Source: an uncultured Actinomycetes bacterium | GTDB lineage: Bacteria; Actinomycetota; Thermoleophilia; RBG-16-64-13 | Reading direction: 5' to 3' | Assembly: GCA_963713545.1 (NCBI GenBank) | Contig: CAVQME010000001.1 | Coordinates: 587,346-651,345 of the forward strand | Length of the DNA: 64,000 nt | Shown: piece by piece, positions 1-50,395 of the stretch | Layout: each line of letters starts with the position of its first letter | How positions within the stretch are numbered: position 1 is the first letter of the stretch | Program-made: the position numbers and the translations under genes | The notes under the pieces: model-generated | What the model was told of the DNA's origin: nothing | Seen by the model: the letters and a program-made list of their open reading frames with translations, nothing else | Database searches by the model: none

Positions 1-180
1 TGGCAGTCACCTCGATACCGGGCTGCGCCGCCTTGAGACCGAGAGCCAGGTCGAGAGCCCGAGCGCTTCCGGGATCGGTCTCCCGCACCAGCCACTCTTC
101 GCGCACGCGCCCGCTGCGCGGGTCGCGCTCCGGAGGGATACGCACATCCGCGCCCAGCTCCAGGAAGACGACCACCTTCA
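1..180 (-). CDS. etfB: Electron transfer flavoprotein beta subunit EtfB/FixA (N-terminal 60 aa; gene runs off the left window edge)
   Basis: The reverse-strand ATG at ~178-180 gives MKVVVFLELGADVRIPPERDPRSGRVREEWLVRETDPGSARALDLALGLKAAQPGIEVTA, a typical EtfB N-terminus. The gene lies downstream of fixX on the same strand. It is not in the ORF track because it is truncated. Confidence 0.7.
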
Positions 181-250
181 TCGGCCTGGTCCGCGAGCGG
201 ACGCCGGCAAGGCGTGCGCCCCGGCGGCCATCGGAGCCGCCGGCCGAAGA

Positions 251-526
251 CTACGTGAGGCGGAAGCGCACACCATACCCTCCCTGGGGGTAGTGCCAGT
301 CGAGAGCTTCACGGTCGCATAGGAGCAGGCAGGTCCCGCATTCGAGACAGGCCTCATACGCGAACTCCACCCGGGCCCGTTCCTCGCTCCAGGTATAGCA
401 GCGAGCCGGACAGGCAAACGTGCAGGCCCGATGCGTGCAACTCTGACACACGTCCGCGTTCAGCCGGATGTGCGCCTCGGGGTGGATCCGGTAGCTCACC
501 AGATCAAACAGTTCGTCCACTACCAA
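251..526 (-). CDS. fixX: Ferredoxin-like protein FixX
   Basis: 91 aa with a Cys-rich 4Fe-4S ferredoxin-like pattern (CQSCTHRACTFACPARC ... CLECGTCLLLC). It overlaps the end of fixC by 7 nt. Confidence 0.8.
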   Translation of the reverse strand: MVVDELFDLVSYRIHPEAHIRLNADVCQSCTHRACTFACPARCYTWSEERARVEFAYEACLECGTCLLLCDREALDWHYPQGGYGVRFRLT

Positions 527-1989
527 AGGAACGCCCTCCCTCCTTGGAACAGATCAGCCAGGAGCTGCCGCATCGTCAGCTCGTCCTTCACTGCCCGACG
601 GCCCAGACGGCCGATCTTCTCTTTGGGGTCGCCGTCAGAACGATAGAGGTCCTCCATGAGCGCGCTCACCACCCGGGGATAGACCGTGAACAGACGGTCC
701 TCGTGTAGGAAATCGATGGCCCGGCCGAAGGTGGCAAGATCGCGCAGGACGAAGCTCTTCTTGAGCTCCTCCCCGTATCCTCCGAGGCGGGACGCGGAGA
801 CGTCGCCGTCAGCCAGCGCTGCTGCCCCGACCTGAGCGGCCACCAGACCCGAGGTCATGGCCAAGTTCATCCCTTCCTGGGTCAGGCCGTTCGTGTAGCA
901 GAAGCCGGCGGCGTCGCCCGCGACCAGGAGCCCCCCCGTAGATAGTTGCGGGATCATGCGCAACCCCGCTTCCGGGAGCAGATGGGCCGAGTATTCGATC
1001 AAGCGGGCCCCCCGAAGCAACGAAGCCACCGGGCTCGAGGCCACAAAGCGCTCCAGCAGTTCGTAGGGCGGGATACCCCGGGTCTTCAGAGAGTCGAGGT
1101 GCATCACCAGACCGACGGAGAGGGTCTCGGTCTGGGTGTAGATGAAGCCCCCGCCGCGGATGCCCTCCGTGCAGCCAAGGAACTCCTGTGTGGCCCCTTC
1201 CCGGCCGACCAGGCCGAAGCGCTCATTGATCTCTTCCTCGGTCAGGCGGTAGAGAGCCCGGACCCCAAGCGCTACCTGTTCGGGTTTGAAGCCCCCGTGC
1301 AGCCCGGCCTCCTGGGCGAGGAACGAAAGCGTCCCATCGCAGGCGATTACCAGAGGAGCCTCGACCATATCGTCGAGCCCCGCCACCCACACTCCCTGCA
1401 CGGTTCCGGCGCGCTTCACGAGGCCTTCCGCCCGGCAGCCGGTGAGCAGGGTCACGCCCTCTTCGACAGCGCGCTCCGCGTACCAGCGATCAAAATGGGG
1501 GCGGAACAGGGTGAAGCCGGTCAGGGTACGGTCGGAGGTCGAGCCGGCGCCCGCCGCGGGTCGGTCGGAATCGGAGTTGGCCTGGAAGACAAGAGAGGTG
1601 GAGGAGCTCTCGCCCATTAGTGAGAGCACCCGCTTGTTGACGGCCCGCTCCCAGGGCGCCCGCTCCCAGAACCCTGGCACCAGCTCCTCCGGGACCGGAC
1701 AGTAGGCCATCATCCCACCAAACATGTTCTTGGCCCCGGGGTACTCACCCCGCTCGAGGAGAAGGACCTTAGCCCCCTTCTGCGCTAGGCCCAGGGCCGC
1801 GCTGGTGCCGGCCGGGCCGGCCCCGACCACGATGGCGTCGAAGCCGCTGGGGATGGAGGCAGCGGATACAGCCGCTCCAGGAGCCGGGGCGCCGCGGGCA
1901 GGGGCGCCGCGAACCGTGGCGCCGCCGACCGTCGCCTCAGCGCCGGCGGCCACGCTGCTAGCGGGGCTCTTCGGGCCCGACGGGGGCAT
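520..1989 (-). CDS. fixC: ETF-quinone oxidoreductase FixC (FAD-dependent)
   Basis: FAD-binding GxGxxG (IVVGAGPAGTSAALGLAQKGAKVLLLERG) and full-length similarity to the FixC/ETF-QO family. The ~55-aa Ala/Gly-rich N-terminal extension suggests the true start is an internal GTG near 1953. Confidence 0.8.
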   Translation of the reverse strand: MPPSGPKSPASSVAAGAEATVGGATVRGAPARGAPAPGAAVSAASIPSGFDAIVVGAGPAGTSAALGLAQKGAKVLLLERGEYPGAKNMFGGMMAYCPVPEELVPGFWERAPWERAVNKRVLSLMGESSSTSLVFQANSDSDRPAAGAGSTSDRTLTGFTLFRPHFDRWYAERAVEEGVTLLTGCRAEGLVKRAGTVQGVWVAGLDDMVEAPLVIACDGTLSFLAQEAGLHGGFKPEQVALGVRALYRLTEEEINERFGLVGREGATQEFLGCTEGIRGGGFIYTQTETLSVGLVMHLDSLKTRGIPPYELLERFVASSPVASLLRGARLIEYSAHLLPEAGLRMIPQLSTGGLLVAGDAAGFCYTNGLTQEGMNLAMTSGLVAAQVGAAALADGDVSASRLGGYGEELKKSFVLRDLATFGRAIDFLHEDRLFTVYPRVVSALMEDLYRSDGDPKEKIGRLGRRAVKDELTMRQLLADLFQGGRAFLW

Positions 1990-3019
1990 CCCGCCACTCC
2001 TTGATCTTCGAAACGAGCGCCGGCAATACCGCCTCCAGGTCGGCTACATAGCCGACATCGGAGAACTGGAAGATGGGAGCCCGCGCGTCTCGGTTGATGG
2101 AGAGAACCCGGTCGGCCTTCTGCACCCCGGCCATGTGGTGAGGCGAGCCCGAGATACCGAGGGCGAGGTACAGCTCGGGAGTGACCGTCTTGCCAGTCTG
2201 GCCGATGAGCCGCTCTTTGGGGAGACGGCCATCGTCGACCACGGGCCGGGTCGCCCCCACCGAGCCCGCGAGGAGGTCAGCGAGTTCCCGCGCGGCGGCC
2301 AGAAGGTCGTCGCTCGCGCTGCCCGAGCCGGCGGCCACGATGCGTTTGGCATGGGCCAGGTCTACGGTCCGCGGGTCCGGTGGGATGGTCTCGAGATGAC
2401 GAACGCGCGGGTGCTGATCTGGCGCCCCGGATGCGTCCTGCGCCGGGCCCTCGATCTCCAGGACTTCCAGAATAGGCAGGCCGTCTGGGAAAGAGTCCGA
2501 CTCATCCATTCCCGTGAGGTCGAGAGTCGCCACCGGAATGAAGCCGGCCTGGGGTTCGATCTCCTGCTCGAGCCAGCCGCCGTAGACCGGCTTCACAAAC
2601 ACGAGGGAACCTCCTCGCACCTGCAGGTCGCTGCAACTAACCACCGCCCCGGAGCCCAGCCGGTGCGCCAGCAGGGGCGCGAGCTCGCGGCAGACATCGG
2701 TGTCGGCCATCACCACGGCCACCGGCTTCGCGTGCTCCACGAAGGCCGCCAGAGCCGTCGCGACCACCTCCGGGTCGATCTCGACCCCGGCTCGCCATGT
2801 GACGAATCGGGGCGTCGCGCCCAGCTCGCGAGCCAGACGCACGCCCTCGGCGAGAATGACCGTGCCTCCCGTTACCGTGGCCTCTCCAGCGCCGCGTTCC
2901 TTCTCCCGGGGCTCGACCACCACCAGGAGGGCGCGCGCGCCGCCCACGTCGGCGCCGCTCGTCGAGGCAGCCGCGGCGGCCGCCGGCGTGGGCGTCACCC
3001 TATCCGCCGCCCCGCTCAC
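1958..3019 (-). CDS. etfA: Electron transfer flavoprotein alpha subunit EtfA/FixB
   Basis: C-terminal FAD-binding signature LYLALGISGSPHHMAGVQKADRVLSIN. The GTG start overlaps the TGA of the upstream oxidoreductase (GTGA). Confidence 0.85.
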   Translation of the reverse strand: MSGAADRVTPTPAAAAAASTSGADVGGARALLVVVEPREKERGAGEATVTGGTVILAEGVRLARELGATPRFVTWRAGVEIDPEVVATALAAFVEHAKPVAVVMADTDVCRELAPLLAHRLGSGAVVSCSDLQVRGGSLVFVKPVYGGWLEQEIEPQAGFIPVATLDLTGMDESDSFPDGLPILEVLEIEGPAQDASGAPDQHPRVRHLETIPPDPRTVDLAHAKRIVAAGSGSASDDLLAAARELADLLAGSVGATRPVVDDGRLPKERLIGQTGKTVTPELYLALGISGSPHHMAGVQKADRVLSINRDARAPIFQFSDVGYVADLEAVLPALVSKIKEWRDAPVGPEEPR

Positions 3020-4965
3020 ACGCGCTTCCCGGCCATATAGCCTTCGTGGATGGCCATATCCACCTTGCGGGGGGCCACGCAGTCGCCGATGCGGTAGAGC
3101 TCGGACACCTTGCCCTTAAGGGCGAAGTAGAGGTCCTCGCAGGCGTCGTTCCCCATGGCGGTGACGATGCTGTCGTATCCGGAGAAGACGTCCCAGACAT
3201 TGGAATAGACGTTGAAGCCGTGCACCTCCAGACCCTTGATCTCCATGACGGCGAAGTCGGGCGTGAAGGTCACCCCCTTCTGGAGCAACCGCTGTCGGGT
3301 GAGGTACAGATCCTGGGACGGCCCCAGGTCGGATCCCACGAAGAGGCTCGAGGTGACCACGTGCACGGTCTTGCCCAATTCGGCCAGGAACTCGGCGGTG
3401 GCTGTTGCCTGGTGGTGACCGTCATAATCGATGAGAAGCACCCTTTCGCCCAACTCCGCCTCGCCCCTTAGGACCTGCCACACGTTGAAGACCCCCGGGC
3501 CGTCGGCGCCCGCCACCGGGCTCGTTTTGGGGCGCGATCCCGTGGCCACGATCACCGCGTCCGGCTCCCGCTCGAAGATGAACTCCGGCGTGACCTCCAC
3601 GCCCAGTTCCACCGGTACCCCCAGATGGGCGAGTTGGTTGCGCTCGTTGCGGACGATCACCCCGAACTCATCTCGGCCTGCGCCCTTCGCCGCCAGGAGC
3701 ACCTGGCCGCCCAGCTCCCCGGCCTGCTCATAGAGGGTCGCTTGGTGCCCCCGCAGAGTGGCGATCTTGGCCGCCCACATGCCTGCCGGACCACCGCCCA
3801 CGACCATGACCCGCTTTTTCCTCAGAGCCGGGCGCAGATGGCGCTCACCTTCAATGTCCTCGCAACCCACCGACGGGTTCTGCACGCAGCCGATCGTCTT
3901 GTTGAGACCCACCCGGCCGTAGCAGTTCTGGTTGCAGGCGATGCAGTAGCGGATCTCTTCGGTTCGGCCCTCCCGGGCTTTGCGGGCAAAATCGGGGTCG
4001 GCGATCTGCCCGCGGACCACCCCGATCATGTCGGCCTGCCCCTCGGCGAGTACCCGTTCCGCGAGGGCCGGGTCGTTGATGCGCCCGGTGGCGAAGACCG
4101 GGAGTGTCGCCACCTCCTTGATGCCGGCGGCCAGCGGGACCGCATAGCCCAGCGGCATGTGCATGGGACCCCCGACCAGATAGAGGTTGTAGAAGGTGGC
4201 GAGGGTCAAGTTGAAGTAGTCCAGGTGCCCGGTCGCTTGAAGGCGCTGGGCGATCTGTTTCGCGTCCTCAAGGGTGAGGCCCCCGGGGATGAGCTCGTCG
4301 GCGCACAGGCGCACTCCCAGGGTATAGTCGGCCCCCACCGCTTCTCTCACCGCGGCGATCACTTCGAGAGCGAAGCGAAGCCGATTATCGAACTCCCCCC
4401 CGTATTCGTCGCCGCGGTAGTTGGTGAGCGGCGACATGAACTGGCGGACCAGCGAGCTGTGCCCGAACTGTAGCTCCACTCCGTCGAAGCCACCCTCGCG
4501 CACGTGGGTCGCCGACCGGGCGAAGTACTCCACCACTTCCCGGATGTCTTCGATCTCCATGGCCTTGGGGGTCTCCCGGTAGAGCACGTCCGGCACGGGG
4601 GACGGTGCCCACACCGGCAGACGAGAGAGGCTACCGCTGCACTGCTGCCCGTTGTGGTTGAGCTGGGCGAAGATGCGCGTCTCGAACGCGTGCACCGCCT
4701 GCGTGAGCCGCTTGTAGCCGGGGATGACCTCCGGGTGGAACGCCTCGATCAGGTGCTCGTAGGCCCGGTCGGTGGGATGGACCGACTGCTCCTCGGTGAT
4801 GATCAGGCCCGCCCCGCCCCGAGCGCGGGCGGCCAGGTAGCCCGTCAGCCGGTCGGTGGGCAGCCCGTCGTCCGCCAGGTTGGTGAGATGGGCGGAGAAG
4901 GAGATGCGGTTGGGCACCGTCACCCGCCCGATCTCCAGGGGGCTGAAGAGGTGGGGGAACTGCAT
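3016..4965 (-). CDS. FadH/OYE-family Fe-S flavoprotein (2,4-dienoyl-CoA reductase / trimethylamine dehydrogenase-like), mycofactocin-system-associated oxidoreductase
   Basis: 649 aa. It has an N-terminal OYE TIM-barrel FMN domain, a CxxCxxC...C [4Fe-4S] motif (CIACNQNCYGRVGLNKTIGCVQNPSVGC) and a C-terminal FAD/NAD(P) domain (VMVVGGGPAGMWAA). The gene immediately follows mftC with an RBS inside the mftC 3' end. Confidence 0.8.
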   Translation of the reverse strand: MQFPHLFSPLEIGRVTVPNRISFSAHLTNLADDGLPTDRLTGYLAARARGGAGLIITEEQSVHPTDRAYEHLIEAFHPEVIPGYKRLTQAVHAFETRIFAQLNHNGQQCSGSLSRLPVWAPSPVPDVLYRETPKAMEIEDIREVVEYFARSATHVREGGFDGVELQFGHSSLVRQFMSPLTNYRGDEYGGEFDNRLRFALEVIAAVREAVGADYTLGVRLCADELIPGGLTLEDAKQIAQRLQATGHLDYFNLTLATFYNLYLVGGPMHMPLGYAVPLAAGIKEVATLPVFATGRINDPALAERVLAEGQADMIGVVRGQIADPDFARKAREGRTEEIRYCIACNQNCYGRVGLNKTIGCVQNPSVGCEDIEGERHLRPALRKKRVMVVGGGPAGMWAAKIATLRGHQATLYEQAGELGGQVLLAAKGAGRDEFGVIVRNERNQLAHLGVPVELGVEVTPEFIFEREPDAVIVATGSRPKTSPVAGADGPGVFNVWQVLRGEAELGERVLLIDYDGHHQATATAEFLAELGKTVHVVTSSLFVGSDLGPSQDLYLTRQRLLQKGVTFTPDFAVMEIKGLEVHGFNVYSNVWDVFSGYDSIVTAMGNDACEDLYFALKGKVSELYRIGDCVAPRKVDMAIHEGYMAGKRV

Positions 4966-4969
4966 GGAC

Positions 4970-6070
4970 TTAAGCTACCTCCTTCGCGGGCACCAGCGTG
5001 GCGGCCGTCGCCGCGCGCAGGCACTCCGGGTCGGGCTGGTCCAGGGACTGGGTGAGGAAGTACGCTACCGCCGGGCAGCCGCCGTGGCAGACGGAGAAGC
5101 GGTCGCAGATGCGGCACGAGTCGACCTCGAGCTCCCGAAACCGCTGGAGCACCGGCGACGATTGGAAGATCTTCTCGAAAGGCTCGAGCGTCACGTTGCC
5201 GGCGAGAAACGCGGGATGGCAGAGGAAGGCACAGGGATAGACGCCGCCATCCGGCGCAACGGCGCAGGTCATCTTGGCCGCGCCGCACATGTCCAACCCC
5301 AGAGTCCGGCGGCTCTGCGGAGTGAGTGAGAAGAACGAGTCGCCGGTCAGGATCTCCGGGTGGTCTCCGAGGAAGCTGGAAAGCGCAAGAAGCTGGTCCC
5401 GGGTCAAGCGGTAGTCCTCCCAGCTCGCGCAGCCGGCTCCGGAGGGGCGGAAACGCGAGAGCCGGGTTTTGGCCCCGTAGCGGCGGGCGAGCCGATCGAA
5501 GTCGGCGATCTCGCCGGCGTTCGGGCGGGTGACCACCATGTTCAGGCTGAAGTCGGGGTAGTCCCGTTCGGCGAGAAGCTCGACGCCGGCGAGGATGCGG
5601 GCGAAGGTCCCGGCCCCCCGGATGCCGTCGTTGGTCTCGGCGCAGGCGCCGTCCAGGCTCACCTGCAGGTAGACGGGCGCCATCCTCAGCAGCTCATCGA
5701 CGAGAGAGTCGGCGAGCACCGTCCCGTTGGTGCTGACGCAGGTGGTGATGCCCTGGGAGTGGCAGTAGGCGAGGATGTCGAGAAAGTCGTCCCGCAGGAA
5801 AGGCTCCCCGCCTCCGAAGTTGATCTGGAAGATCTCCATGCGGGCCAGCTCGTCGATGAGCGCCCGGCATTGCTGAAGGTCGAGCGCACCCCCGCCCCGG
5901 CCGAGAGGGTCGTCGCTCCGCAACCCGTTCCCGCCCGGCGTTTCGCCGCCAAGTCCAGCGCGCACTCCGGCAGAGAGGCAGTGGGTGCAGCGGAGGTTAC
6001 ACGCCTGGGTGATCTCCCACGTGACGTTGACCGGCGCGCGAAGGGGGGTGCTACTCAGCCTGTGTGGCAA
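4970..6070 (-). CDS. mftC: Mycofactocin radical SAM maturase MftC (radical SAM + SPASM)
   Basis: CxxxCxxC radical SAM motif (TQACNLRCTHC) and a Cys-rich C-terminal SPASM domain. It directly follows mftB with overlap. Confidence 0.85.
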   Translation of the reverse strand: MPHRLSSTPLRAPVNVTWEITQACNLRCTHCLSAGVRAGLGGETPGGNGLRSDDPLGRGGGALDLQQCRALIDELARMEIFQINFGGGEPFLRDDFLDILAYCHSQGITTCVSTNGTVLADSLVDELLRMAPVYLQVSLDGACAETNDGIRGAGTFARILAGVELLAERDYPDFSLNMVVTRPNAGEIADFDRLARRYGAKTRLSRFRPSGAGCASWEDYRLTRDQLLALSSFLGDHPEILTGDSFFSLTPQSRRTLGLDMCGAAKMTCAVAPDGGVYPCAFLCHPAFLAGNVTLEPFEKIFQSSPVLQRFRELEVDSCRICDRFSVCHGGCPAVAYFLTQSLDQPDPECLRAATAATLVPAKEVA

Positions 6071-6338
6071 CGATCAGGCCCCTATCGACAAGGTTCTCAA
6101 GCAGTCGCCTTACTGCCGCACGCCGGCCACCCCGGAGCGCCCCTACGTGGAGAACACGGTCCGGTCCGGCGAAAGGCGGGGGCGTTAGAGCGTCGCCGGA
6201 GCGCACGAACGTCAGCTTGGTGGAGCGGGTGTCGTAGAAGAGCAGCCCGAAGCTTTCGCGTCGCACCCGGACCCAGTCCGGTACGAGATACGTGGTCGCT
6301 GGCAGCAGATCGAACCCGGCGTCGTCAGTAGACGCCAC
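6051..6338 (-). CDS. mftB: Mycofactocin precursor-binding chaperone MftB (PqqD/RRE family)
   Basis: 95 aa with the RRESFGLL motif, corresponding to the MftB 'RPExFGAL' signature. It overlaps the end of mftA and the start of mftC. Confidence 0.8.
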   Translation of the reverse strand: MASTDDAGFDLLPATTYLVPDWVRVRRESFGLLFYDTRSTKLTFVRSGDALTPPPFAGPDRVLHVGALRGGRRAAVRRLLENLVDRGLIVATQAE

Positions 6339-6450
6339 AGATCCCGTCCACGGCCAGGTCTTCGACCTCGATCTCTTCGAGGACCAGCGGCTCCTCGGGA
6401 GGGGCCGGGCATGGGGTGGCGGCTAGGACATCATCGCTTCTGGCATACAT
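6325..6450 (-). CDS. mftA: Mycofactocin precursor peptide MftA
   Basis: MYARSDDVLAATPCPAPPEEPLVLEEIEVEDLAVDGICGVY ends in the hallmark ...DG(M/I)CGVY-COOH. A GGAGGG RBS lies upstream. This is an internal start within the ORF-track entry 6325..6513. Confidence 0.8.
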   Translation of the reverse strand: MYARSDDVLAATPCPAPPEEPLVLEEIEVEDLAVDGICGVY

Positions 6451-6484
6451 ATGTTCCCTCCGTGAGGTCGGGCGCCTCAGTGCG

Positions 6485-7594
6485 TCAGTCCCATTCACAG
6501 ACCCAGCGCCCACCGAGTTGACGCCGCTCCATCTTCTCGGCGATTTCGTTGATATCCTCGAGCTTGAACTTGCCCGCGATTATCTTGTCCAGTTTCATCT
6601 CCCCGGTCATGGCCAAATCGATCAGCTTGGGTATGTCGTCTTTGGTGGAGATAGAACCGTAGAGCCCTCCGATCATCGCCTTCTGCTGCAGAGCCATGAA
6701 GGTCAGGGGCATGGGGGCCACCTGATCCTGGGGCATGATCCCGACGACCATGAGGCGACCGGCCATCCCAAGGGCCCACCAGGCCTGCACCAGAGCACCT
6801 GGGTCCCCGCTGCACTCGAAGATGAAATTCGCCCCCCCGCCGGTCAACTCTTGGACGATGGGCACGGGATCCTCGGTCGAGTTGCAGATGAAGTGGGTAG
6901 CCCCCAACTCGAGGGCGATCTCACGCCGGGACTCCTCTAGGTCCACGGCGATGAGAGGATTGGCTTGGCGCATCTTCGCCGCCCGGAGCGTGTTCTGGCC
7001 AACGCCCCCCAGCCCCCACACGGCTACCTTGTCCCCGGGCTGGACGTTGGCCAGCTTGGTCACCGTCCCCCAGCCCGTGGGAACGCAGCAGCTCATCAAG
7101 GCGCCCCATTCGAGCGGCACGTCCTTGCGCAGTGGGACGAGGGAATCTTCAGGGACCACGGTGTAGTCCGAGAAGCCGGACACGAAGTTGCCGTGCAGGA
7201 CCGGGTTGCCCTTGGCATCCCTCATGCGGGTGGTGCCGTCGAGCATGGTGCCCCCTACGAAGTACTGGAAGTTGCCTGAGCATACGTTGCCCAGACCACG
7301 ACGGCACTCGGGGCAATCACCGCAGGGGCACATCCAGGCGCTCGCGACATGATCGCCCACCTTGACCCGGGTCACGCCCTCGCCGATGGCCTGGACCACC
7401 CCGGCGCACTCGTGACCGGCCACCATCGGCAGAGCCATATAGATCCGGCCCTTGAGATTGCTGAGGTCGCTGTGGCAGTAGCCCGTGTACTGGTACTTGA
7501 CGAGAGCTTCGCCGGCCTTCGGCGGATCGAGTTCCAGTTCTTCGATGCTGTAACCCTTGTTGACTTCGCGCAGGATAGCGGCCCTGATCTTCAC
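6485..7594 (-). CDS. Zn-dependent alcohol dehydrogenase, NDMA-dependent / mycofactocin-associated (Rxyl_3153-type)
   Basis: 369-aa MDR-family ADH with GHECAG, GDHV, catalytic Zn Cys/His and the GLGGVG NAD motif. It is encoded immediately 5' of mftA on the same strand. Confidence 0.8.
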   Translation of the reverse strand: MKIRAAILREVNKGYSIEELELDPPKAGEALVKYQYTGYCHSDLSNLKGRIYMALPMVAGHECAGVVQAIGEGVTRVKVGDHVASAWMCPCGDCPECRRGLGNVCSGNFQYFVGGTMLDGTTRMRDAKGNPVLHGNFVSGFSDYTVVPEDSLVPLRKDVPLEWGALMSCCVPTGWGTVTKLANVQPGDKVAVWGLGGVGQNTLRAAKMRQANPLIAVDLEESRREIALELGATHFICNSTEDPVPIVQELTGGGANFIFECSGDPGALVQAWWALGMAGRLMVVGIMPQDQVAPMPLTFMALQQKAMIGGLYGSISTKDDIPKLIDLAMTGEMKLDKIIAGKFKLEDINEIAEKMERRQLGGRWVCEWD

Positions 7595-7822
7595 TTGCGT
7601 TCCCCCTTCGCCGTGGCTCTAGTCGGCGCTCGCCCGGAAGCGTCGGTAGTACTCCGAACACCCGCGGACATCCGTTACCGAGCGCAAGACGCCCGCGGCA
7701 TGCCCCCTTACATTACCATCGCGACGGGCCCGCGAGTAGACTGCCACCACGCCCTAGCAGCCATCTCCGGCCGAGCCCCGCCCCCGCGGTCGGCAGTATC
7801 GCCGCTTCACCATGCTCCGGCC

Positions 7823-8194
7823 TCACCGGCGGCGGCGCCTTAGGCGCCGCGCCTCTCCTACCCGGAGGGTCAACCCTTCAGAATCCATGTGTTCCAGGAG
7901 CGCCTGCGCATACCGGCGGGAGGTGCCAAGCAGATCCCGGGCTTCAGCCAGGGTCAGCTGATCCGCCTCCTCCATGGCCGTTACCAGCCGGCCGATCAGA
8001 TCGTCCAGGCGCTCCGGTGGATAGTAGAGGTCTTCGCCCACCTTGACCAACCGGCCCTGACGCACCAAGGCGTCGACGATCCTCTTCGCGTCGCGCACAA
8101 CGAGTCCCGCCGCGGCGGCCGCCACGGTCACGCTCGGAGTCTCGGCGGCGCGTTCGGCGCTATCACCGTCGTGAACTGCGCCAGCAGGCTCTCG
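7823..8194 (-). CDS. selB: SelB C-terminal winged-helix fragment (frame-shifted continuation of selB)
   Basis: Only the last ~110 aa of ORF 7823..9064 look protein-like (GLVVRDAKRIVDALVRQGRLVKVGEDLYY...TSRRYAQALLEHMDSEGLTLRVGEARRL). The Arg-rich N-terminal part of that ORF is out-of-frame junk. Confidence 0.55.
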   Translation of the reverse strand, partial: REPAGAVHDGDSAERAAETPSVTVAAAAAGLVVRDAKRIVDALVRQGRLVKVGEDLYYPPERLDDLIGRLVTAMEEADQLTLAEARDLLGTSRRYAQALLEHMDSEGLTLRVGEARRLRRRRR

Positions 8195-13989: not shown

Positions 13990-14075
13990 GCAGGCGTGAG
14001 TTGCTCGTGCCTCTTGTATCGTCCTATGATGGAGTCCTGTTTAGTCCGCGATTCGCTAGGATCGAGAGGGCCAGC

Positions 14076-15536
14076 ATGATCATCCGACCTGTCATCCTCG
14101 CGGGAGGTTCCGGCACCAGGCTGTGGCCGGCATCCCGGCAGCGCCATCCCAAGCAACTGCTCGCTCTAACCGGTCCGGAGTCGCTCTTGCAGGAGACCGC
14201 CACCCGCCTGCGAGGCTTCCCCGTGGGGACGGTCGCCGATCCCGTGGTGGTGACGAACGAGGAGTACCGCTTCATCGTGGTCGACCAACTGCGAGAAGTG
14301 GGCGTCGGAGCGCCGCAGGTCGTGCTGGAACCGGTGGGCCGCAACACAGCTCCAGCTTTGACATTGGCCGCACTCTTGCCCACCGACCCTGACGGCGACC
14401 CGATCCTCCTCACCATGCCGTCCGACCATCTCATCGGCAATATCTCCGCCTTCCATACCGCCGTCGCTGAAGGAGCTGAGCAGGCTCAGAAGGGCATGGT
14501 CGTCACGTTCGGCGTGGTGCCCGATCGACCTGAGACAGGCTACGGCTACATCCGAGTGGGACAGCCGGCACCCGCGGCACCAACGGCTCGCGTCCTTTCC
14601 GGCTTCGAGGAGAAGCCCGACCTGGAGACAGCCGAGAGCTATCTCGCGGGCGGCGATCACCTCTGGAACAGCGGCATATTCATGATGAAGCGCTCTGTGT
14701 GGCTAGCGGCCCTGGAACACTACCGACCTGCCATCAGCGCGGCCTGCCGGAAGGCCGTGGACGGCGCCAAGATAGACGGTCCTTTCGTGCGCCTGGGCAA
14801 GGCCGCCTTCACAGCCTGCCCTTCCGAATCCATCGACTATGCGGTGATGGAAGAGCTCGGCGCTTCCCCCACCGAGACCCAGGCGGTGGTAGTGCCGCTC
14901 GACGCCGGCTGGTCCGACGTCGGGAGCTGGCAGGCCATCTGGGCGGTCTCGGCCAAAGATGCATCCGGTAACACCACCCGGGGGGAGGTTGTGCTCGAGG
15001 ATACCCGAAACACGCTGGTGCACGCCTATTCGCGCTTGGTGGCGGTACTCGGCGGCGAGGATCTGGTGGTTGTCGAGACCGCCGATGCCGTTCTGGTGGC
15101 TGGTTCGGACAAGGCCGCCGATCTCAAGAAGCTTGTCGCTCGAGTCCAAGACTCCGACCCAGACCTTACTCTGAGCCACCGCCGAGTGCACCGTCCGTGG
15201 GGGCGGTTCGAATCCATCGACAGCGGGGAACGCTTCCAGGTGAAGCACATCGTGGTCAACCCGGGAGCCAGTCTGAGCCTTCAGTATCATAGGCGCCGGG
15301 CGGAGCATTGGGTGGTGGTCCGTGGGATCGCCGAGGTGACCGTCGGCAACCGGGTCTTCCGACTGACGGCGGACGAATCCACCTACGTACCCTTGGGCAC
15401 CCCCCACCGCCTTGCCAACCCCGGGCCGGAGCCTCTAGAGATCATCGAGGTGCAATCGGGCGAGTATCTGGGAGAGGACGACATCGTCCGCCTGGAGGAC
15501 AACTACGGGCGCATCGATCTCGTCGCGGAGCCCTAG
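14076..15536 (+). CDS. manC: Mannose-1-phosphate guanylyltransferase / mannose-6-phosphate isomerase (bifunctional ManC/CpsB type)
   Basis: N-terminal nucleotidyltransferase motif ILAGGSGTRLWP and a C-terminal cupin MPI domain (HRRVHRPWGRFESI...HHRRAEHWVVV). The internal start MIIRPVILAGG is preferred. Confidence 0.85.
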   Translation: MIIRPVILAGGSGTRLWPASRQRHPKQLLALTGPESLLQETATRLRGFPVGTVADPVVVTNEEYRFIVVDQLREVGVGAPQVVLEPVGRNTAPALTLAALLPTDPDGDPILLTMPSDHLIGNISAFHTAVAEGAEQAQKGMVVTFGVVPDRPETGYGYIRVGQPAPAAPTARVLSGFEEKPDLETAESYLAGGDHLWNSGIFMMKRSVWLAALEHYRPAISAACRKAVDGAKIDGPFVRLGKAAFTACPSESIDYAVMEELGASPTETQAVVVPLDAGWSDVGSWQAIWAVSAKDASGNTTRGEVVLEDTRNTLVHAYSRLVAVLGGEDLVVVETADAVLVAGSDKAADLKKLVARVQDSDPDLTLSHRRVHRPWGRFESIDSGERFQVKHIVVNPGASLSLQYHRRRAEHWVVVRGIAEVTVGNRVFRLTADESTYVPLGTPHRLANPGPEPLEIIEVQSGEYLGEDDIVRLEDNYGRIDLVAEP

Positions 15537-15609
15537 AACTCTTTTCAGAATGAAGCCGCGGCCGCCTAGTGCGCCCTGGGCGGCACGATAGTGCGTCCTC
15601 GGTCCCGCA
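15537..15609. repeat. Dispersed repeat copy 1 (core ...AACTCTTTTCAGAATGAAGCCGCGGCCGCCTAGTGCGCCCTGGGCGGCACGATAGTGCGTCCTCGGTCCCGCA)
   Basis: About 66/70 nt identical to 50396..50469, with a related copy at 25068..25140. It starts exactly at the manC stop codon and contains GC-rich palindromes (CCGCGGCCGCC / GGCGGC). Confidence 0.6.
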
Positions 15610-16563: not shown

Positions 16564-18174
16564 ATGGATGTGCTGCGCGGACTCCAGGAAGGGTGGATGG
16601 AGATGCCAGAGCTATTTGGGAATCCCTACGTACTGCCGGCCGTCATCGTGGTCGTCTTGCTGCTGGTGCTGCTGCTCATCGTGATGATGCGCAAACGTCG
16701 AGGCACGAGCCAGAGCGAAGTCCGGTCGATGGAACGAGTAGCGGCTCCGCCTGCAGGACCCGCGGCGGCAGCCAGCATCATGCCTATGGCCGCCGCCGAC
16801 TCGCAGCCGGGACCCTTACCGAGTCAAGCGCCGAGTCAAGCCACGGGAGCGCCGGACACATCCCTCGTCCCCCAGCCTCAATCCCCTGCGGCGGCCGCTC
16901 AGCCCGTTGTCGCAAAAGAGCGCCCCGCACCTGTCACGCCTGTTGCCAAGGCAACCAAGTTCCCGGAGCGTGCGGCACTCAACGACGATCCGCTGCGGGC
17001 CGTCATTCTCGACATCGTGCACGGATGGGGCGACCTGACCAGCGAGGACACCAACCGCCTCAACCTGTTCCGGGCGGACAAGGTCTTGGCTGCCGCCGAG
17101 GCGATCGACCTCCCGAAGGAAGACGCGGGCGGCGGCTACGCCCGCACCCGTTTGCTGCAGATACGGAAGTACGCGGCCGACAAACAGCTCCAGCAGAAGC
17201 CCCCCGAAGCCGCGCCCGAGGTGCAACCGTCAGGAGTGGAACCGGTGCTCACAATGGAGGCAGTGGAGACCGATCCCGAGGAGACCGCGACTCTGGTAGC
17301 CGAGGTCGAGCAGACCCCGAGTCAGGAGACCCGGGCCGAGGAACTTGCCGCGGGAGAGCCCCAGCCCGAAGGACCGCCACCTTCGTGGGAACTGCCTCAG
17401 CCGACGGAACACCTTGCCGGCGCCGGTCTGGCGACCGCGGCCTTCGCAGCTACGCCCCACGACGAGAAGATCGAAGACCGCCTGAGCTTGGAGAAGGAGC
17501 TCGGCGAGGATGAGGGCGAGTGGACGCAGTCGGCGGAGCCGATCGTGATACCACCGTGGCCCGAGGAGTCAAGGCCTGAGGAGTCTGTGGCGACGTCTCC
17601 GTGGCCGGAGGATTCGCAGCCCGTCGAGACGACCGCGTCGTCGCCGTGGCCGGAGGAGTCGCAGCCTTTGACGCCGGCCACAGCTTCTCCTTGGTCGGAG
17701 GAGCCGACGGGTTGGGATATCGACGAGCCACCGGTCCTAGAGGAGGTCCCGGTCGAGTTGGACGATGAGCAGCCTCTGCCGGCGGCGGCGGTCGCCGACA
17801 TAGGACCTGCTGCCGCAACCGCAGCTACCGCGATCACCGAGGAGACGACGCCGGTGCAGGACATCACCGACCAGTTCCAGGCGCCTGATGATTCCCTTTC
17901 GACTCTGCATGGCAGGGTGAGGACCGCAGAGGAGCTCATGGCCCTGCCCGCAGGCGATCAAGCCGACATGCTCGCCTTCCTGGAGCCGCCTGAACTCGCA
18001 CGCGTATTCGAGGCCAGCGAAGATCGAAGGCTCAAGAAGGGGGTGATCGACGTCCTTGAGAACCTCGGTTCCCCCGGGTCTCTGGACGTGCTTCGCCGCT
18101 GCCTTGACGACGCAGACCCGGAGATGCAGGTCTACGCTCTGGACGCCGCAGACCGGCTTCTAGGAGTAGAGTAG
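16564..18174 (+). CDS. Membrane-anchored acidic repeat protein with C-terminal HEAT-like repeats (hypothetical)
   Basis: N-terminal TM helix, an acidic Pro-rich region with three SPWPE(E/D)S repeats, and a C-terminal HEAT/PBS-lyase-like segment (VIDVLENLGSPGSLDVLRRCLDDADPEMQVYALDAADRL). An alternative start MEMPELF at 16597 has a GGAAGGG RBS. Confidence 0.5.
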   Translation: MDVLRGLQEGWMEMPELFGNPYVLPAVIVVVLLLVLLLIVMMRKRRGTSQSEVRSMERVAAPPAGPAAAASIMPMAAADSQPGPLPSQAPSQATGAPDTSLVPQPQSPAAAAQPVVAKERPAPVTPVAKATKFPERAALNDDPLRAVILDIVHGWGDLTSEDTNRLNLFRADKVLAAAEAIDLPKEDAGGGYARTRLLQIRKYAADKQLQQKPPEAAPEVQPSGVEPVLTMEAVETDPEETATLVAEVEQTPSQETRAEELAAGEPQPEGPPPSWELPQPTEHLAGAGLATAAFAATPHDEKIEDRLSLEKELGEDEGEWTQSAEPIVIPPWPEESRPEESVATSPWPEDSQPVETTASSPWPEESQPLTPATASPWSEEPTGWDIDEPPVLEEVPVELDDEQPLPAAAVADIGPAAATAATAITEETTPVQDITDQFQAPDDSLSTLHGRVRTAEELMALPAGDQADMLAFLEPPELARVFEASEDRRLKKGVIDVLENLGSPGSLDVLRRCLDDADPEMQVYALDAADRLLGVE

Positions 18175-23430: not shown

Positions 23431-23535
23431 GCCTCTGTCCCTTGTCTCCGTGAGGGTCGTTCGCCAGCCGTGCTAACCCGCGTCTCCATCGCCCTTCCGG
23501 AAGAGTCGCACCTGCGCAGCCGAAGTCCATCAGGC

Positions 23536-23605
23536 GCCGCGGCCCCATCACCCTCGAGGGAGGAGTCGTACAACGCAGCCGGAACGAGGGTGATGGGGCC
23601 GCGGC
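23536..23605. terminator. Long perfect hairpin (21-bp stem GCCGCGGCCCCATCACCCTCG / CGAGGGTGATGGGGCCGCGGC, 28-nt loop)
   Basis: Perfect inverted repeat 105 nt downstream of the stomatin stop and ~35 nt upstream of tRNA-Ala. There is no U-tract, so the terminator role is inferred. Confidence 0.35.
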
Positions 23606-23639
23606 CACTGTGCTATAAATACGCGATTGTGCGTCGACT

Positions 23640-23712
23640 GGGGGTATAGCTCAGTTGGGAGAGCGTCGCGTTCGCATCGCGAAGGCCAGGGGTTCGAATC
23701 CCCTTACCTCCA
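23640..23712 (+). tRNA. tRNA-Ala (anticodon CGC)
   Basis: Cloverleaf GGGGGUA/UA/GCUCAGUUGGGAGAGC/G/UCGCG-UUCGCAU-CGCGA/AGGCC/AGGGG-UUCGAAU-CCCCU/UACCUCC/A. It has the G3:U70 alanine identity pair and the T-loop GTTCGAATC. CCA is not encoded. A TATAAAT -10-like box lies at 23614-23620. Confidence 0.85.
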
Positions 23713-23748
23713 CTCCTTCCCTCCCTTGTCGGCCGTCCTCATGAAGGG

Positions 23749-24162
23749 GTGACCACCGTGCCTCTCATCGAGATCAGAGTCTCCTCCCCGGCACGCGAGG
23801 TGCTGGTGGATATCAGCGACAGGGTCCAGCAGGCCGTCACCCAGTCCCATCCGACACTGAGCGGCATGGTGAGCATCTTCGTGCCTCACACCACCGCCGG
23901 CGTCACCATCAACGAGGGCGCCGATCCCTCCGTGGCCCGCGATATCGTCGAGGGCCTTGCCCGCCTCGTCCCCCGCGAGGCCGCCTATCGTCATAGCGAG
24001 GGGAATTCCGACGCGCACATCAAGGCGAGTCTCGTAGGCAGCAGCGTCGCGGTCCCCGTGGAACAGGGACGGTTGCGGCTTGGCACGTGGCAGAGCATCT
24101 ATCTGGCCGAATTCGATGGTCCTCGCACCCGGCGGGTATGGATAGTGCCCGCGCCTGCGTGA
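23749..24162 (+). CDS. YjbQ/UPF0047 family protein (secondary thiamine-phosphate synthase-like)
   Basis: 137 aa with the conserved UPF0047 pattern (HTTAGVTINE...GNSDAHIKASLVGSSVAVPV...LGTWQSIYLAEFDGPRTR). Confidence 0.7.
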   Translation: MTTVPLIEIRVSSPAREVLVDISDRVQQAVTQSHPTLSGMVSIFVPHTTAGVTINEGADPSVARDIVEGLARLVPREAAYRHSEGNSDAHIKASLVGSSVAVPVEQGRLRLGTWQSIYLAEFDGPRTRRVWIVPAPA

Positions 24163-25121
24163 GCCCCGGGACGTCCGGGGCCGGCCCTCAGAACGGTCCC
24201 GGTTCGGAGCTGGGCGAGGCGGTGGAGGAGTTCATCCGAGATCAGCTGAGCAGTCCGGAGATCAACAATCTCGGCCCGGGCACCGACGGGAAGGCCTGGG
24301 ACGGCGTCCTGTTGGGGTTCTCCAGCGGAGCAGACGAGCTCTACGAGTTCCTCAAGGAGCACATCGGACCGTTCCACTGGACGCCGGCCGAAGCCTTCGC
24401 CCTGGGCACGTCGACGGACCGGCCGGTGTCTGGCCCAGAAGATGCGGCCGATGCCTCAGCGGGCGAGCTGACGGTGATCAGTTGGGCCCTCTGTCAGACC
24501 GAGAGTGCCAAAGCTGCGAACCGGGCGGAGACCCTGATGCCGTCGGAACCATGGGCGCGATCCCGGATCTTCGGGCAGAACTGCAATCGCCGCCTGCACA
24601 AGGCGCTCGTCCAGATGCTCGCCGACCTTGGATACGAGGCCGTAGCCCCCGGGTTGCTCCGGCAGTGGGCCGAGGAGTCCTCTCCCCGGTTCGGAAGAGC
24701 ATGTACTTGGTCCGAGCGTCACGTAGCCCATATCTCTGGTCTGGGGACCTTCGGTCTGTCGGGTGGGCTGATCACCGAGCGGGGGCAGGCGGTCAGATTC
24801 GGATCGGTGGTAGTCCGCGCGCAGATCCCGGTCACCCTGCGGCGCTATACCGACCCCTTCGCCTACTGCCTCTTCTTTGCCCGAGGCACCTGCGGGGCTT
24901 GCGCGCGTCGCTGCCCTGTCGGGTCGATCAGCGAGGATGGTCGCGACAAGGCAGCCTGTGCCACACATCTCATTCCGGTGAGCGAAGAGTTCGTCAAGCA
25001 GGAATACGGTTTCGACGGTTACGGGTGCGGTCTCTGCCAGACCAAAGTGCCCTGCGAATCGGGCATCCCCAAGAACTCGTTTCAGAATGAAGCGCCGCCG
25101 CTGGGTCCGCCGAGAGTCTAG
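24087..25121 (+). CDS. Epoxyqueuosine reductase QueG-like [4Fe-4S] protein
   Basis: QueG/DUF1730-like core (HISGLGTFGLSGGLITERGQAVRFGSVVV) plus 4Fe-4S Cys clusters (CGACARRCP, CGLCQTKVPC). The last 17 aa are contributed by repeat copy 2. The true start may be MDSARAC at 24138. Confidence 0.5.
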   Translation: MAEHLSGRIRWSSHPAGMDSARACVSPGTSGAGPQNGPGSELGEAVEEFIRDQLSSPEINNLGPGTDGKAWDGVLLGFSSGADELYEFLKEHIGPFHWTPAEAFALGTSTDRPVSGPEDAADASAGELTVISWALCQTESAKAANRAETLMPSEPWARSRIFGQNCNRRLHKALVQMLADLGYEAVAPGLLRQWAEESSPRFGRACTWSERHVAHISGLGTFGLSGGLITERGQAVRFGSVVVRAQIPVTLRRYTDPFAYCLFFARGTCGACARRCPVGSISEDGRDKAACATHLIPVSEEFVKQEYGFDGYGCGLCQTKVPCESGIPKNSFQNEAPPLGPPRV

Positions 25122-25140
25122 ACGCTCAGTCCCGGACCTC
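25068..25140. repeat. Dispersed repeat copy 2 (divergent; AAGAACTCGTTTCAGAATGAAGC...TCAGTCCCG)
   Basis: It shares the 5' block (A)ACTCGTTTCAGAATGAAGC and the 3' block TCAGTCCCG with copies 1 and 3. It overlaps the 3' ends of two convergent genes and encodes their last codons and stop codons. Confidence 0.45.
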
Positions 25141-25990
25141 AGTCTCCCCATCAGGGCCGTCTTCACCGGAGCCGGCCGGCGGCCAGTCTGGACCTTCGCC
25201 CTCGTAGTAGTCGACTCCCAGTATCGGAGCCGAGCCCTGCACCACCGCTGCCAGCCGCCTGCGCCGGCGCCATAGTATGCCCCGCCAGACAGCCAGTCCC
25301 AGCAACAGCACCCAAGCGGCCACCTCGAGTACCTGACCGACTGTGTTGGCCGCCGTACGCCCGTAGGTGAGAGTCACGTGGCTTTCGGTGGGGATCACCA
25401 TCATGAACGAAGGAGAAGCCAGATAGGGTCCGTCGGCTCCCTCGACGTGCCAGTTGGGGAAATAGGAGACCTTGATCCAGTGCGGCTGCCCGATGGCCGT
25501 GGTGTCGAACGAGAGGCTTTCGTTCTCCATCAGCTCTCCGATGACACGGCCCTCGGCGACGATGGGTTCCGCAGGGGGAATCGCGGCCTCATCAAGAGGT
25601 ATCTGGGTGAACTGTTGGAGCGCCTCGTCCCCATTATCGAGGACGATCGGGGTGTCGAGGGCGGATTCGTTGAGATACCAGTCCACGGCCATATCGCGCC
25701 ATTCGTTCACCTCGATGTCGACCTTCACCGGCTTGTTCTTCATCACTTCGACATAGCCGGTGGTGCCGATGATGCGGAAGACGTTGTAATCACCGAAGGT
25801 CGCCAGAAGCTCAGCCCGTGAGTCGGCCTGCAGAGCGCTGACGACCTCCGGCGAGAACGCGAGCAGATAGGGGATGTCCATGAGTTGCAGCCGGGTGATC
25901 CCCTGAGCCACATCAAGCGAGGGGTAGGTGACCCCGATGATGGCGTTGCTGGGCTGCTTGGAGAGATAGGCCTGATTGATGAAGTGGAAG
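25126..25990 (-). CDS. C-terminal extracytoplasmic domain + terminal TM of the same membrane protein (frame-shifted continuation)
   Basis: The reading frame of ORF 25126..25911 stays open upstream of its annotated Met (…FHFINQAYLSKQPSNAIIGVTYPSLDVAQGITRL…) and overlaps the end of the 25913..27403 frame. The shift lies near the CACGGCGCCC run at ~25990. Confidence 0.5.
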
Positions 25991-27403
25991 GGCGCCGTGA
26001 TACGAAGCCTCCATCAAGGTGCCTTCCATGGTGGGAAGCTCGGTCCAGTAGGGAATGATCTCGAAGGCGCGGGGGGTGCCGAACTCGTCGATCTTGTCCC
26101 CGTGCTCCACCATCACCCGGCCCGGAGGGTCGAGCGTGGCTATGAACTGGTTGATGGAGTTGTATTGCTCCCAGTTGGTCTTGCCTTCGTAGCCGGAGTA
26201 GTTCCACCTGATCCAGCCTGCGGCGGTGGTGCTCGTCACTATGATCACCGCTCCCAGCACGATCGCGACCACTGGTACGTAGATCCTGCGGGCGTTGATC
26301 CCCCGCAACCGGAAGAGGTCGCGCATCATCACCGTGAAGGGACGGATCAGCCAGGTGGCGCCATATGCAGCCCAGAAGTGAAGCGACACATAGAAGAACG
26401 GCAGGATCCGGGCGTTCCACAGACGACCGTTCGGAAGCACCCAGAAGAGCACGAGGGTGATGAAGGTGATCCAGGCCAGCGGGAGCAGCTTCTTCTCCTT
26501 GCGGGCGACGGCATACGCCATCCCTATCAGGCCAAGGGTCGCGACGGGCAGCAGTTGTAGCGGCAATAGGTCGCCGAGCGAGTCCAGCTGGTCCCAGGCC
26601 ATGTGCGCCGTCCACTCCAGATTCGAGGCGAAAGGCAGCGACCAGAAAGCGGTCAAGCAGAAGCCCACCGCAGCCACCGCAGCCATGTAGCCAAGAGAAC
26701 GCCAGCGGGGGATCACGAGCAAGAGCCCGGGGATGATGCAGACCAGCGCGATGGTGGTCACGATGTGCGAGAGGACGAGAGCCATCAGAATCAGGCAGTT
26801 GAGGACGAAGAGCATGTTGAAATGAGGCTTCTCCATCCCCCGGTACATAGTGCCCAGGAATAGGAACACCAGGGCGAAGCTCAGCATGTAGCCGAATTCG
26901 CCCGCCAGCGTGCTGAGGATGTTCCCCCCGTAGATGGAGTAGCTCTCCATGAGCAGGAAGATCAACGCGAAGACGGCAGCAAAGATGGGGAAGGGACGCC
27001 GCACCCGCCACAGCCGACCCATCGCGTAGGCGGCTGCCGGCAGAGCGAAGACCCCCAATACGGTGCCGATCTTGAAGGCCACTTCGTAGGCCATGAACCA
27101 GTCCATGATAGCTATGAGCAAGAACGGGAAGGGGAAATAGAACGTCAGCATGGGCATGCCGGCGTACCAACCGGGCGCCCAGCCGGTCAAACGGAAATGG
27201 GGTAGCAGCTCCTGGATGAGGTACTGCGCGGGGTAGTGATGCGCGCCTGTGTCGCCGCCGGCGGTGGTAGTGATACTGAAGAGGAGGTTGGGCCGATAGA
27301 AGATGAGCAGGGTCGTATAGATCGCCAGGAATGCCAGCAGGGTGGGGACCCAGTCCCAGATGCTTCCCTTCTCGACCAGGTCCTCTCGCTTAGGGTCCAG
27401 CAT
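25913..27403 (-). CDS. Large polytopic membrane protein, N-terminal part (GT-C-like glycosyltransferase candidate; frameshifted)
   Basis: About 12 TM helices; a YfhO/GT-C-like topology is inferred. Together with the adjacent downstream ORF it forms a ~758-aa protein with a periplasmic C-terminal domain and a final TM helix. It lies in a GtrA / GT2 / membrane-GT cassette. Confidence 0.55.
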   Translation of the reverse strand: MLDPKREDLVEKGSIWDWVPTLLAFLAIYTTLLIFYRPNLLFSITTTAGGDTGAHHYPAQYLIQELLPHFRLTGWAPGWYAGMPMLTFYFPFPFLLIAIMDWFMAYEVAFKIGTVLGVFALPAAAYAMGRLWRVRRPFPIFAAVFALIFLLMESYSIYGGNILSTLAGEFGYMLSFALVFLFLGTMYRGMEKPHFNMLFVLNCLILMALVLSHIVTTIALVCIIPGLLLVIPRWRSLGYMAAVAAVGFCLTAFWSLPFASNLEWTAHMAWDQLDSLGDLLPLQLLPVATLGLIGMAYAVARKEKKLLPLAWITFITLVLFWVLPNGRLWNARILPFFYVSLHFWAAYGATWLIRPFTVMMRDLFRLRGINARRIYVPVVAIVLGAVIIVTSTTAAGWIRWNYSGYEGKTNWEQYNSINQFIATLDPPGRVMVEHGDKIDEFGTPRAFEIIPYWTELPTMEGTLMEASYHGALPLHQSGLSLQAAQQRHHRGHLPLA

Positions 27404-50083: not shown

Positions 50084-50374
50084 TTAGGCGCCCGGCGCGG
50101 CCCGGGCGATGATGGCCGTACCTTCGATGCCGAGCCGTAGCTGAAATGACACCGGTCCGGCCTCGGCCGCAATCAGTTCGAGCAGAGCATCGCGCGCGGC
50201 TCGGATGATGGCGTACTCATCCCGCTCCAGCCGGGCCGCGACCGCTGAGTCGACTCCCACCATCGATCGGCACCAGGTCTCACCCGAGTAGATCACGTCG
50301 AAAGTGACCGTGTAGGCGTCCGGTGTGTCGCCGTCCACGATCGACACGAGTTCGACGTCCATGAATATGGTCAT
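50084..50374 (-). CDS. Hypothetical small protein (~96 aa)
   Basis: Coding-like GC3. The internal start MTIFMDVEL is preferred, because the ORF-track start lies inside the repeat element. Confidence 0.4.
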   Translation of the reverse strand: MTIFMDVELVSIVDGDTPDAYTVTFDVIYSGETWCRSMVGVDSAVAARLERDEYAIIRAARDALLELIAAEAGPVSFQLRLGIEGTAIIARAAPGA

Positions 50375-50395
50375 GCCGGACGCTCCGCGGACTAA

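Follow-up and report, generated by a model that had tools for sequence, protein, structure and literature searches.

A 163-bp non-coding repeat of Gaiellales/Thermoleophilia actinobacteria, very probably a MITE family, and its placement at stop codons

The window considered here (the whole stretch of DNA analysed, 64,000 nt from an uncultured Actinomycetes bacterium) contains several short stretches of similar sequence that adjoin gene ends. A sequence-only reading had taken them as a dispersed family of three ~70-nt repeats, at 15537-15609, 25068-25140, and 50396-50469, and had offered a small mobile element, a REP-like element, or a structured RNA as possible identities. Two questions follow: what the repeat is, and why it lies where genes stop. 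Very probably it is a 163-bp non-coding MITE family, spread through soil actinobacteria of the Gaiellales/Thermoleophilia group. The family appears to be undescribed (no account of transposable repeats in Gaiella or its relatives turned up in full-text literature searches), although the element type itself, the bacterial MITE, is well known, and the finding changes no general concept.

Anatomy of the element and its copies in the window

The 20-mer AACTC(G/T)TTT(C/T)AGAATGAAGC occurs four times in the 64-kb window, at 15537(+), 25074(+), 50397(+), and 50538-50557(-), where about 0.01 occurrences would be expected by chance. The fourth of these, inverted and adjoining the TAG stop codon of a ribonucleotide reductase (RNR) gene, had been missed in the earlier count of three; with it, the supposed third copy becomes a complete element with terminal inverted repeats.

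This complete copy is 163 bp long (50396-50558, +), lies between the RNR stop codon and the next minus-strand gene, and matches a 35-copy model over model positions 2-162 (nhmmer, E=1.3e-43). Its left terminal inverted repeat is CAACTCGTTTCAGAATGAAGC (50396-50416, +) and its right one, in the minus-strand reading, GAACTCGTTTTAGAATGAAGC (50538-50558, -). The two copies of the target-site duplication are TAA on the left (50393-50395) and, one base different, TAG on the right (50559-50561; CTA on the minus strand); the TA of the latter and the terminal G of the right repeat together make the RNR stop. Internally there is a central hairpin, CGCAAATAGC-GCT-GCTATTCGCG (50466-50488), which is the portion of the element that covaries between copies. 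On its 5′ side lies the motif GCGTCCTC (50453-50460, +), which occupies invariant columns of the 35-copy alignment, and on its 3′ side the near-invariant CCCTGCGTCCTT (50491-50502, +), a direct repeat of GCGTCCT. For the family as a whole, the unit is 161-165 bp (modal 163) with 21-nt terminal inverted repeats GAACTCGTTTCAGAATGAAGC, its ends opening with GAACTCGTTTCAG..., and a 3-bp target-site duplication (TAA, TTA, TCA, TGA) stands on either side of it, inside a C-TWA-G context.

The RNR gene itself (50558-53974, -) is of the class II type, with an intein containing a LAGLIDADG homing-endonuclease domain and with a C-terminal TSCPD domain.

The copy at 15536-15609 (+) preserves 73-74 nt from the left side of the element, taking in the end, the inner stem, and the GCGTCCTC motif (nhmmer E=1.7e-16, model positions 1-80). 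The match stops where the central hairpin begins, and the copy is thus a truncated half; a second element end was looked for nearby and not found. Its identity with 50396-50469, given earlier as about 94%, is borne out at 70 of 74 positions (94.6%) with the first base included, or 70 of 73 (96%) without it. The shared terminus TC(A/G)GTCCCG proposed for the family, on the other hand, is only the point at which this copy was truncated, the complete element running on from 50396 to 50558. The convergent ManC-like and CpsB-like genes are 87 nt apart, and the half copy occupies most of this spacer, beginning directly at the TAG stop (15534-15536, +) of the ManC-like ORF (14001-15536), which is composed of the TA of the flanking triplet CTA and the element's first G.

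The third site is of a different kind. A lone 21-nt element end (25073-25093, +; 0 mismatches) lies in frame near the 3′ end of an epoxyqueuosine-reductase-like (Fer4) gene (24087-25121, +; here called queG-like), and gives the C-terminal tail of its product seven element-encoded residues, NSFQNEA. In a protein alignment, queG-like homologues end ...VPCESGIPK-PLRxxxx*, while the window protein and P0001, a metagenome protein 91% identical to it, end ...GIPK-NSFQNEA-PP(L/P)GPPR(V/A)* (the window tail reads K-NSFQNEA-PPLGPPRV*). At the DNA level, comparison with two syntenic relatives (L074 and L075), which are empty sites with no 21-nt insert in the queG-like gene, shows exactly the 21-nt element end as extra sequence in the window, after CCCCAA. 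What had been read as a divergent copy at 25068-25140 is therefore element DNA only at 25073-25093; the remainder corresponds, in alignment with the insert-free relatives, to the gene's own 3′ tail. Likewise, the claim that every copy starts at or near a stop codon holds for the copy at the ManC-like TAG but not here, where the element end is read through in frame. As the net insert is 21 nt, the reading frame has been kept. The most likely history is that a full element inserted near the 3′ end of the queG-like gene and that all but one end was then deleted.

Next to this gene, two adjacent ORFs in different frames (25126-25911 and 25913-27403, both -) correspond to one 756-aa PTPS_related gene in L074 and L075; the split in the window is a frameshift, marking a pseudogene or else an error in the sequence. 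At its C-terminal end the gene overlaps the rearranged region beside the lone element end.

The in-frame remnant recalls the Rickettsia palindromic elements (RPEs), which are likewise small palindromic repeat pieces found in frame within protein genes (PMC2229807). RPEs, however, insert whole and add 30-50 residues, whereas here there is a seven-residue remnant in one gene, the queG-like one, of an element that is otherwise intergenic and, unlike RPEs, has target duplications.

Dispersal, target site, and candidate transposase

An exact scan for the 20-mer, with one genome per species, returned 72 stretches, of which 70 came from 27 MAGs labelled Gaiella, Gaiellales, Thermoleophilia, or uncultured Actinomycetes, with up to 10 in a genome. 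The other two were in A+T-rich Leptospiraceae and Clostridium DNA, had no likeness to the element outside the 20-mer, and are probably chance matches. When elements with two ends were counted, mismatches in the ends being allowed, 58 were found; 44 were 161-165 bp long (29 of them exactly 163 bp), and 12 were short internal-deletion derivatives of 53-128 bp. There are still shorter remnants, of 49 bp in L018 and 27 bp in L029, so that the sizes run from a modal 163 bp down through derivatives of 27-128 bp, which retain both ends; none has coding capacity, and the element is too short to encode a transposase. Across 35 aligned copies the 21-nt ends are nearly invariant. A 73-bp derivative is present at several different loci in two MAGs, from which it follows that the ends and a few inner bases are sufficient for spread.

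None of the 72 loci has flanks that match those of the three window copies, although six copies in MAG MFD05942.bin.1.358, whose flanks are unrelated, are 96-98% identical to the element itself. Empty counterparts can be seen for the RNR site as well as for the queG-like gene. RNR gene 3′ ends were fetched from metagenomes (80 loci); in about 25 contigs, with RNR C-termini 84-95% identical to the window's and ending ...YSKC(A/S)*, the stop codon is followed after 10-100 nt by the same small ORF that in the window lies beyond the element. An element profile search of the 80 fetched loci gave no match. The window RNR site is thus a filled one. An exact-match metagenome search for the predicted empty site of this copy (CTCCGCGGACTARGCGCACTTGGA) found none.

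With terminal inverted repeats, 3-bp target duplications, and many copies that have unrelated flanks and, at the RNR and queG-like genes, empty as well as filled sites, the small mobile element of the sequence-only reading is the option that prevails; the prospect that these might be the only copies, with unconserved termini, is clearly put to rest.

The small ORF downstream of RNR (50084-50374, -; MTIFMDVELVSI...FDVIYSGETWCRS...) has no Pfam match. About 25 metagenomic relatives keep it in this place directly beside RNR, and it is therefore probably a genuine gene linked to RNR.

Two other loci deserve mention. In a Thermoleophilia MAG (FR_37; L057, positions 1-8000), five or six diverged copies sit in the spacers of an ffh-trmD-lepB-rnhB region, unusually dense in element copies and probably co-transcribed. 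In L062, at about 4240-4330, a truncated element copy has beside it A+T-rich DNA, which contrasts with its G+C-rich surroundings, includes a short direct repeat (ATATTTGCTCCAAGC, twice), and lies upstream of a lipoprotein-like ORF.

The position of imperfect palindromes of 60-160 bp right after stop codons might also bring to mind integron attC sites, or other targets of site-specific recombinases at the 3′ ends of gene cassettes. We consider this extremely improbable: attC sites would lie at the ends of cassettes, in arrays beside an integrase, with no target duplication, while the neighbours here are housekeeping genes in conserved synteny (RNR, ManC, queG-like, ffh-trmD-lepB) with no cassette arrays, target duplications are present, both orientations occur, and it is the element alone that distinguishes empty from filled sites.

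The target duplication is best seen over the whole set of paired elements. Identical 3-mers stand on both sides of 22 of the 58 (TAA 8, TTA 7, CAA 3, TCA 2, TGA 1, TAG 1); when the right flanks were shuffled, the mean was 7.4 matching pairs, and 22 was never reached in 100,000 trials (P<1e-5). Inverted-type flank matches number 0 of 58. In the remaining 36 the duplication is imperfect, most being off by one base. Outside the ends the consensus reads C (75%), T (75%), W (84%), A (80%), followed by the element's G (80%), and in T-N-A pairs the middle base is equal on both sides (A-A 8, T-T 7; A-T or T-A 0). The matching triplets, the lack of inverted-type matches, and the agreement of the middle base indicate a direct 3-bp duplication and not a longer inverted repeat. 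A 5-bp (CTWAG) duplication was also considered, and was rejected since the outer positions can differ despite identical inner triplets (L068, L065, L017, L037, L002).

These data bear on what kind of enzyme might move the element. One candidate is a transposase of the IS630/Tc1-mariner type, with a TA target in CTAG, as for RUP, in place of one of the IS5 type. Many flanks do contain TA, and CTAG-type junctions are common; 20 of the 58 gene-adjoining ends have a stop made of xTA plus the element's G, and six pairs with TAA on the left and TAG on the right would fit a TA duplication with one further base. However, a MITE of this type should duplicate the TA dinucleotide, and what is found includes exact duplications without TA (TCA twice, TGA once, CAA three times) and a triplet whose middle base is itself duplicated, as the A-A and T-T counts above show; in addition, the end sequence resembles that of an IS5-family element (IS1237, below). 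We judge an IS630-type origin to be improbable.

REP-like elements are a second candidate, in the form of REP/REPIN sequences or palindromic elements derived from IS200/IS605, moved as single-stranded DNA by a Y1 (HUH) transposase. REPs are short palindromes mobilised by RAYT-type enzymes, and the present element, hairpin-rich, intergenic beside gene ends, and in many copies, has something of their character. Elements of the REP/IS200/IS605 type, though, insert 3′ of a fixed tetra- or pentanucleotide, and have neither terminal inverted repeats in the DDE sense nor target duplications, while here the 21-nt ends are symmetric and the 3-bp direct duplication is significant, making the REP-like option of the sequence-only reading very unlikely.

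As a third candidate, and the preferred one, we infer a transposase of the IS5 family, from the type of duplication together with the match of the end sequence to one published insertion sequence. A 3-bp TNA/TWA duplication is expected of IS5 derivatives, and TAA, TTA, TCA, and TGA predominate here. The ends of IS1237, from the actinobacterium Leifsonia xyli, are GAGGTGGTTTCAGTAGTCG, and its target duplication is TTA/TAA (PMC2516522, Table 1); targets of 3 nt are typical of the IS1031 group (PMC2516522). The element end agrees with that of IS1237 at 11 of 19 positions, in a single post hoc comparison, and GA..T.GTTTCAG is common to both at the same offset from the terminus. Mobilisation by an IS1237-like transposase is thus a lead suggested by sequence likeness, and not a demonstration.

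Searches for the partner itself gave nothing. End pairs 400-6000 bp apart and enclosing an ORF, as an autonomous copy would have, were sought in the window and 155 loci (about 880 kb) with relaxed end patterns, including the IS1237-like GR..T.GTTTCA, and none was found; nor was there an IS1237-like transposase beside the element ends in this set. The ORFs of the copy-rich L057 locus are housekeeping genes (ffh, trmD, lepB, rnhB) with no transposase, and BLAST searches of plasmids, with the element or the IS1237 end as query, yielded nothing useful. The element has every testable structural feature of a bacterial MITE except for an identified partner insertion sequence.

The proposed mechanism is accordingly that of a non-autonomous, cut-or-copy DNA transposon of about 163 bp, whose 21-nt GAACTCGTTTCAGAATGAAGC ends would be recognised by a DDE transposase encoded elsewhere, putatively of the IS1237/IS1031/IS427 type in the IS5 family. 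Insertion would involve a 3-bp staggered cut at C-TWA-G, with duplication of TWA. Internal deletion is common in long hairpins, and decay by this route may have given rise to half copies, such as that at 15536-15609, and to lone ends, such as that at 25073-25093.

Several known elements are comparable. Closest in general plan are Correia/NEMIS of Neisseria and RUP of Streptococcus pneumoniae, which are likewise non-coding and some 100-160 bp in length; their terminal inverted repeats measure about 20-26 nt, and their target duplications are short. They, too, have many dispersed copies, mostly intergenic and near genes, form a long hairpin by 5′-3′ pairing when transcribed, and often lack an autonomous partner (PMC2229807). 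They differ in duplicating TA and in being A+T-rich, while the Gaiellales element duplicates 3 bp (TWA/TNA) and is G+C-rich inside; it also has, as they do not, a covarying central hairpin with invariant GCGTCCT motifs, and there is no known IHF site or RNase III processing for it. IS1237/ISLxx6 of Leifsonia xyli (IS5 family, IS427/IS1031-like) has the same 3-bp TTA/TAA duplication and comes from the same phylum, Actinomycetota, but is 899 bp long and carries a transposase gene, while the Gaiellales element has no coding capacity (PMC2516522).

From a different domain of life, the eukaryotic Tourist-type MITEs (PIF/Harbinger, relatives of IS5) are small and hairpin-forming, duplicate a 3-bp TWA, and prefer genic neighbourhoods. 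The likeness here is one of features, with no sequence relationship shown.

Placement at gene ends

Among 134 element ends, 58 (43%) coincide with the stop of an open frame that is 100 codons or longer. For random positions in this DNA (67% G+C) the corresponding figure is 1.5%, and for unoccupied TNAG, CTNAG, TWAG, or CTAG sites it is 10-30%. The stop is the duplicated triplet itself at 33 of the 58 ends (TAA 24, TGA 7, TAG 2); at 20 it is a TAG formed from the TA of the triplet and the terminal G of the element, and at the other 5 it overlaps the junction at another offset. In the window, two genes have stops built with an element base in this way, the ManC-like gene (TAG, 15534-15536) and RNR (TAG, 50558-50560, on the minus strand). 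Contact with one or more gene stops is seen in 30 of 45 full-length copies; ten of these lie between convergent genes and adjoin both stops. The element turns either end to the gene at random (A end only in 10, B end only in 10, both in 10).

We would explain this adjacency by a concentration of the target at stop codons in G+C-rich genomes, together with the survival of harmless insertions. In genomes of about 65-67% G+C, A/T-rich target sites lie disproportionately at stop codons; a duplicated TAA or TGA, or TA plus the element's G, rebuilds the stop on either side and on either strand. As the duplication regenerates a stop on either strand, both neighbouring genes are left intact. Insertions at gene ends, being harmless, would survive, and those within genes would presumably be purged.

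Genes meet the element in two frames, either as TAA or TGA and then GAA CTC GTT TCA GAA TGA, or as TA+G and then AACTCG.... The peptide NSFQNEAAAA*, earlier put forward as encoded by the element, belongs to just one of these and is not a general product. A tmRNA/ssrA-like degradation tag was considered as a role for it, and was rejected because the element is met in two different frames and in both orientations. Both the placement at stop codons and the in-frame remnant in the queG-like gene are expected consequences of the target preference.

The element offers a clean natural example of how target preference and purifying selection together can bring a transposon exactly onto stop codons where the genome is GC-rich; through the duplication, one gene or both of a convergent pair keep the stop. 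In practical terms, the family will recur across genomes of the Gaiellales/Thermoleophilia, an abundant but poorly studied soil lineage, where it is an annotation hazard (spurious C-terminal extensions of the NSFQNEA... kind, shifted stops, assembly breaks), and where the presence or absence of copies could serve in strain typing.

The central hairpin and a possible host function

There remains the structured RNA option. The complete copy gives a long rod on folding, whichever strand is taken: the MFE is -78.9 kcal/mol for one and -94.2 kcal/mol for the other, and the z-scores relative to shuffles are -5.9 and -7.9. In a structural alignment of 35 full-length copies from many MAGs, the ends never vary and the inner rod is only moderately kept, while in the central hairpin (helix 5; 50466-50488 in the window) seven of nine pairs have changed on both sides, with 94% of cells paired; the direct motifs GCGTCCTC and CCCTGCGTCCT flanking it are invariant or nearly so. 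A purely selfish element constrained only at its ends does not predict a covarying hairpin and invariant GCGTCCT motifs, and since derivatives without the centre have spread, transposition alone does not obviously explain why the centre is conserved.

The hairpin and its flanking motifs suggest some role besides transposition; of all the element's features, the conserved central hairpin alone could conceal something more. The element might, for example, be mainly a structured RNA (or single-stranded DNA) module that has been selected for what it does for the host at the 3′ ends of mRNAs, as a hairpin that stabilises or terminates them or as a platform for protein binding; mobility would then be only its means of delivery. 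In favour of such a role are the long-rod fold (z = -5.9 and -7.9), the compensatory changes in seven of nine hairpin pairs, the two invariant pyrimidine-rich GCGTCCT motifs beside the hairpin, and the spread of 73-bp derivatives without the centre, which leaves room for some factor other than transposition to conserve it; the L057 copies, moreover, fill the spacers of a probably co-transcribed ffh-trmD-lepB-rnhB region.

Against it, a search of 50330-50630 with Rfam found no match even at E<=10 (over the whole window, the sole Rfam 15 match at the gathering threshold was a tRNA-Ala), and a simple scan for intrinsic terminators and promoters found no pattern. The orientation of the element relative to the adjoining gene is random, so that only a strand-symmetric function, whether of the RNA or of the DNA, is possible, and about 25 relatives do without the element at the RNR site. 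Covariation, too, has another potential source: in quasipalindrome correction, hairpin-templated mutation keeps quasi-palindromes paired without selection, and the paired changes seen here could have arisen in this way. Of the proposed structured RNA, then, the long hairpin fold and the covarying central stem hold up, while the lack of an Rfam match and of any orientation bias speaks against it, and we allow only a small chance that this is what the element mainly is.

A related and similarly doubtful proposal is that the 163-bp form is a strand-symmetric module (the covarying hairpin and two GCGUCCU motifs) that acts as a mobile 3′-UTR cassette and is in part maintained by the host. Such a cassette would be, for instance, a stabiliser or terminator of mRNA 3′ ends, or a binding platform for a protein or of an anti-Shine-Dalgarno-like kind; if so, a transposon would be delivering a functional module precisely onto stop codons.

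Some further repeats in the window may be recorded here. About 30 nt upstream of the tRNA-Ala(CGC) gene (23640-23713) there is a 26-nt inverted repeat, 92% complementary and with a 28-nt loop (23531-23610). Tandem repeats with a 17-nt period (CCCCCGCTCTGCGCCGTTCCGCGCCCTGCGCCGC and variants) occupy 57219-57286. Finally, at 17555-17675 there are three tandem repeats with a 45-nt period (CGTGGCCGGAGGAGTC...) within an ORF (16564-18174) that has a weak HEAT-repeat match, the period being such that a 15-residue peptide is repeated.
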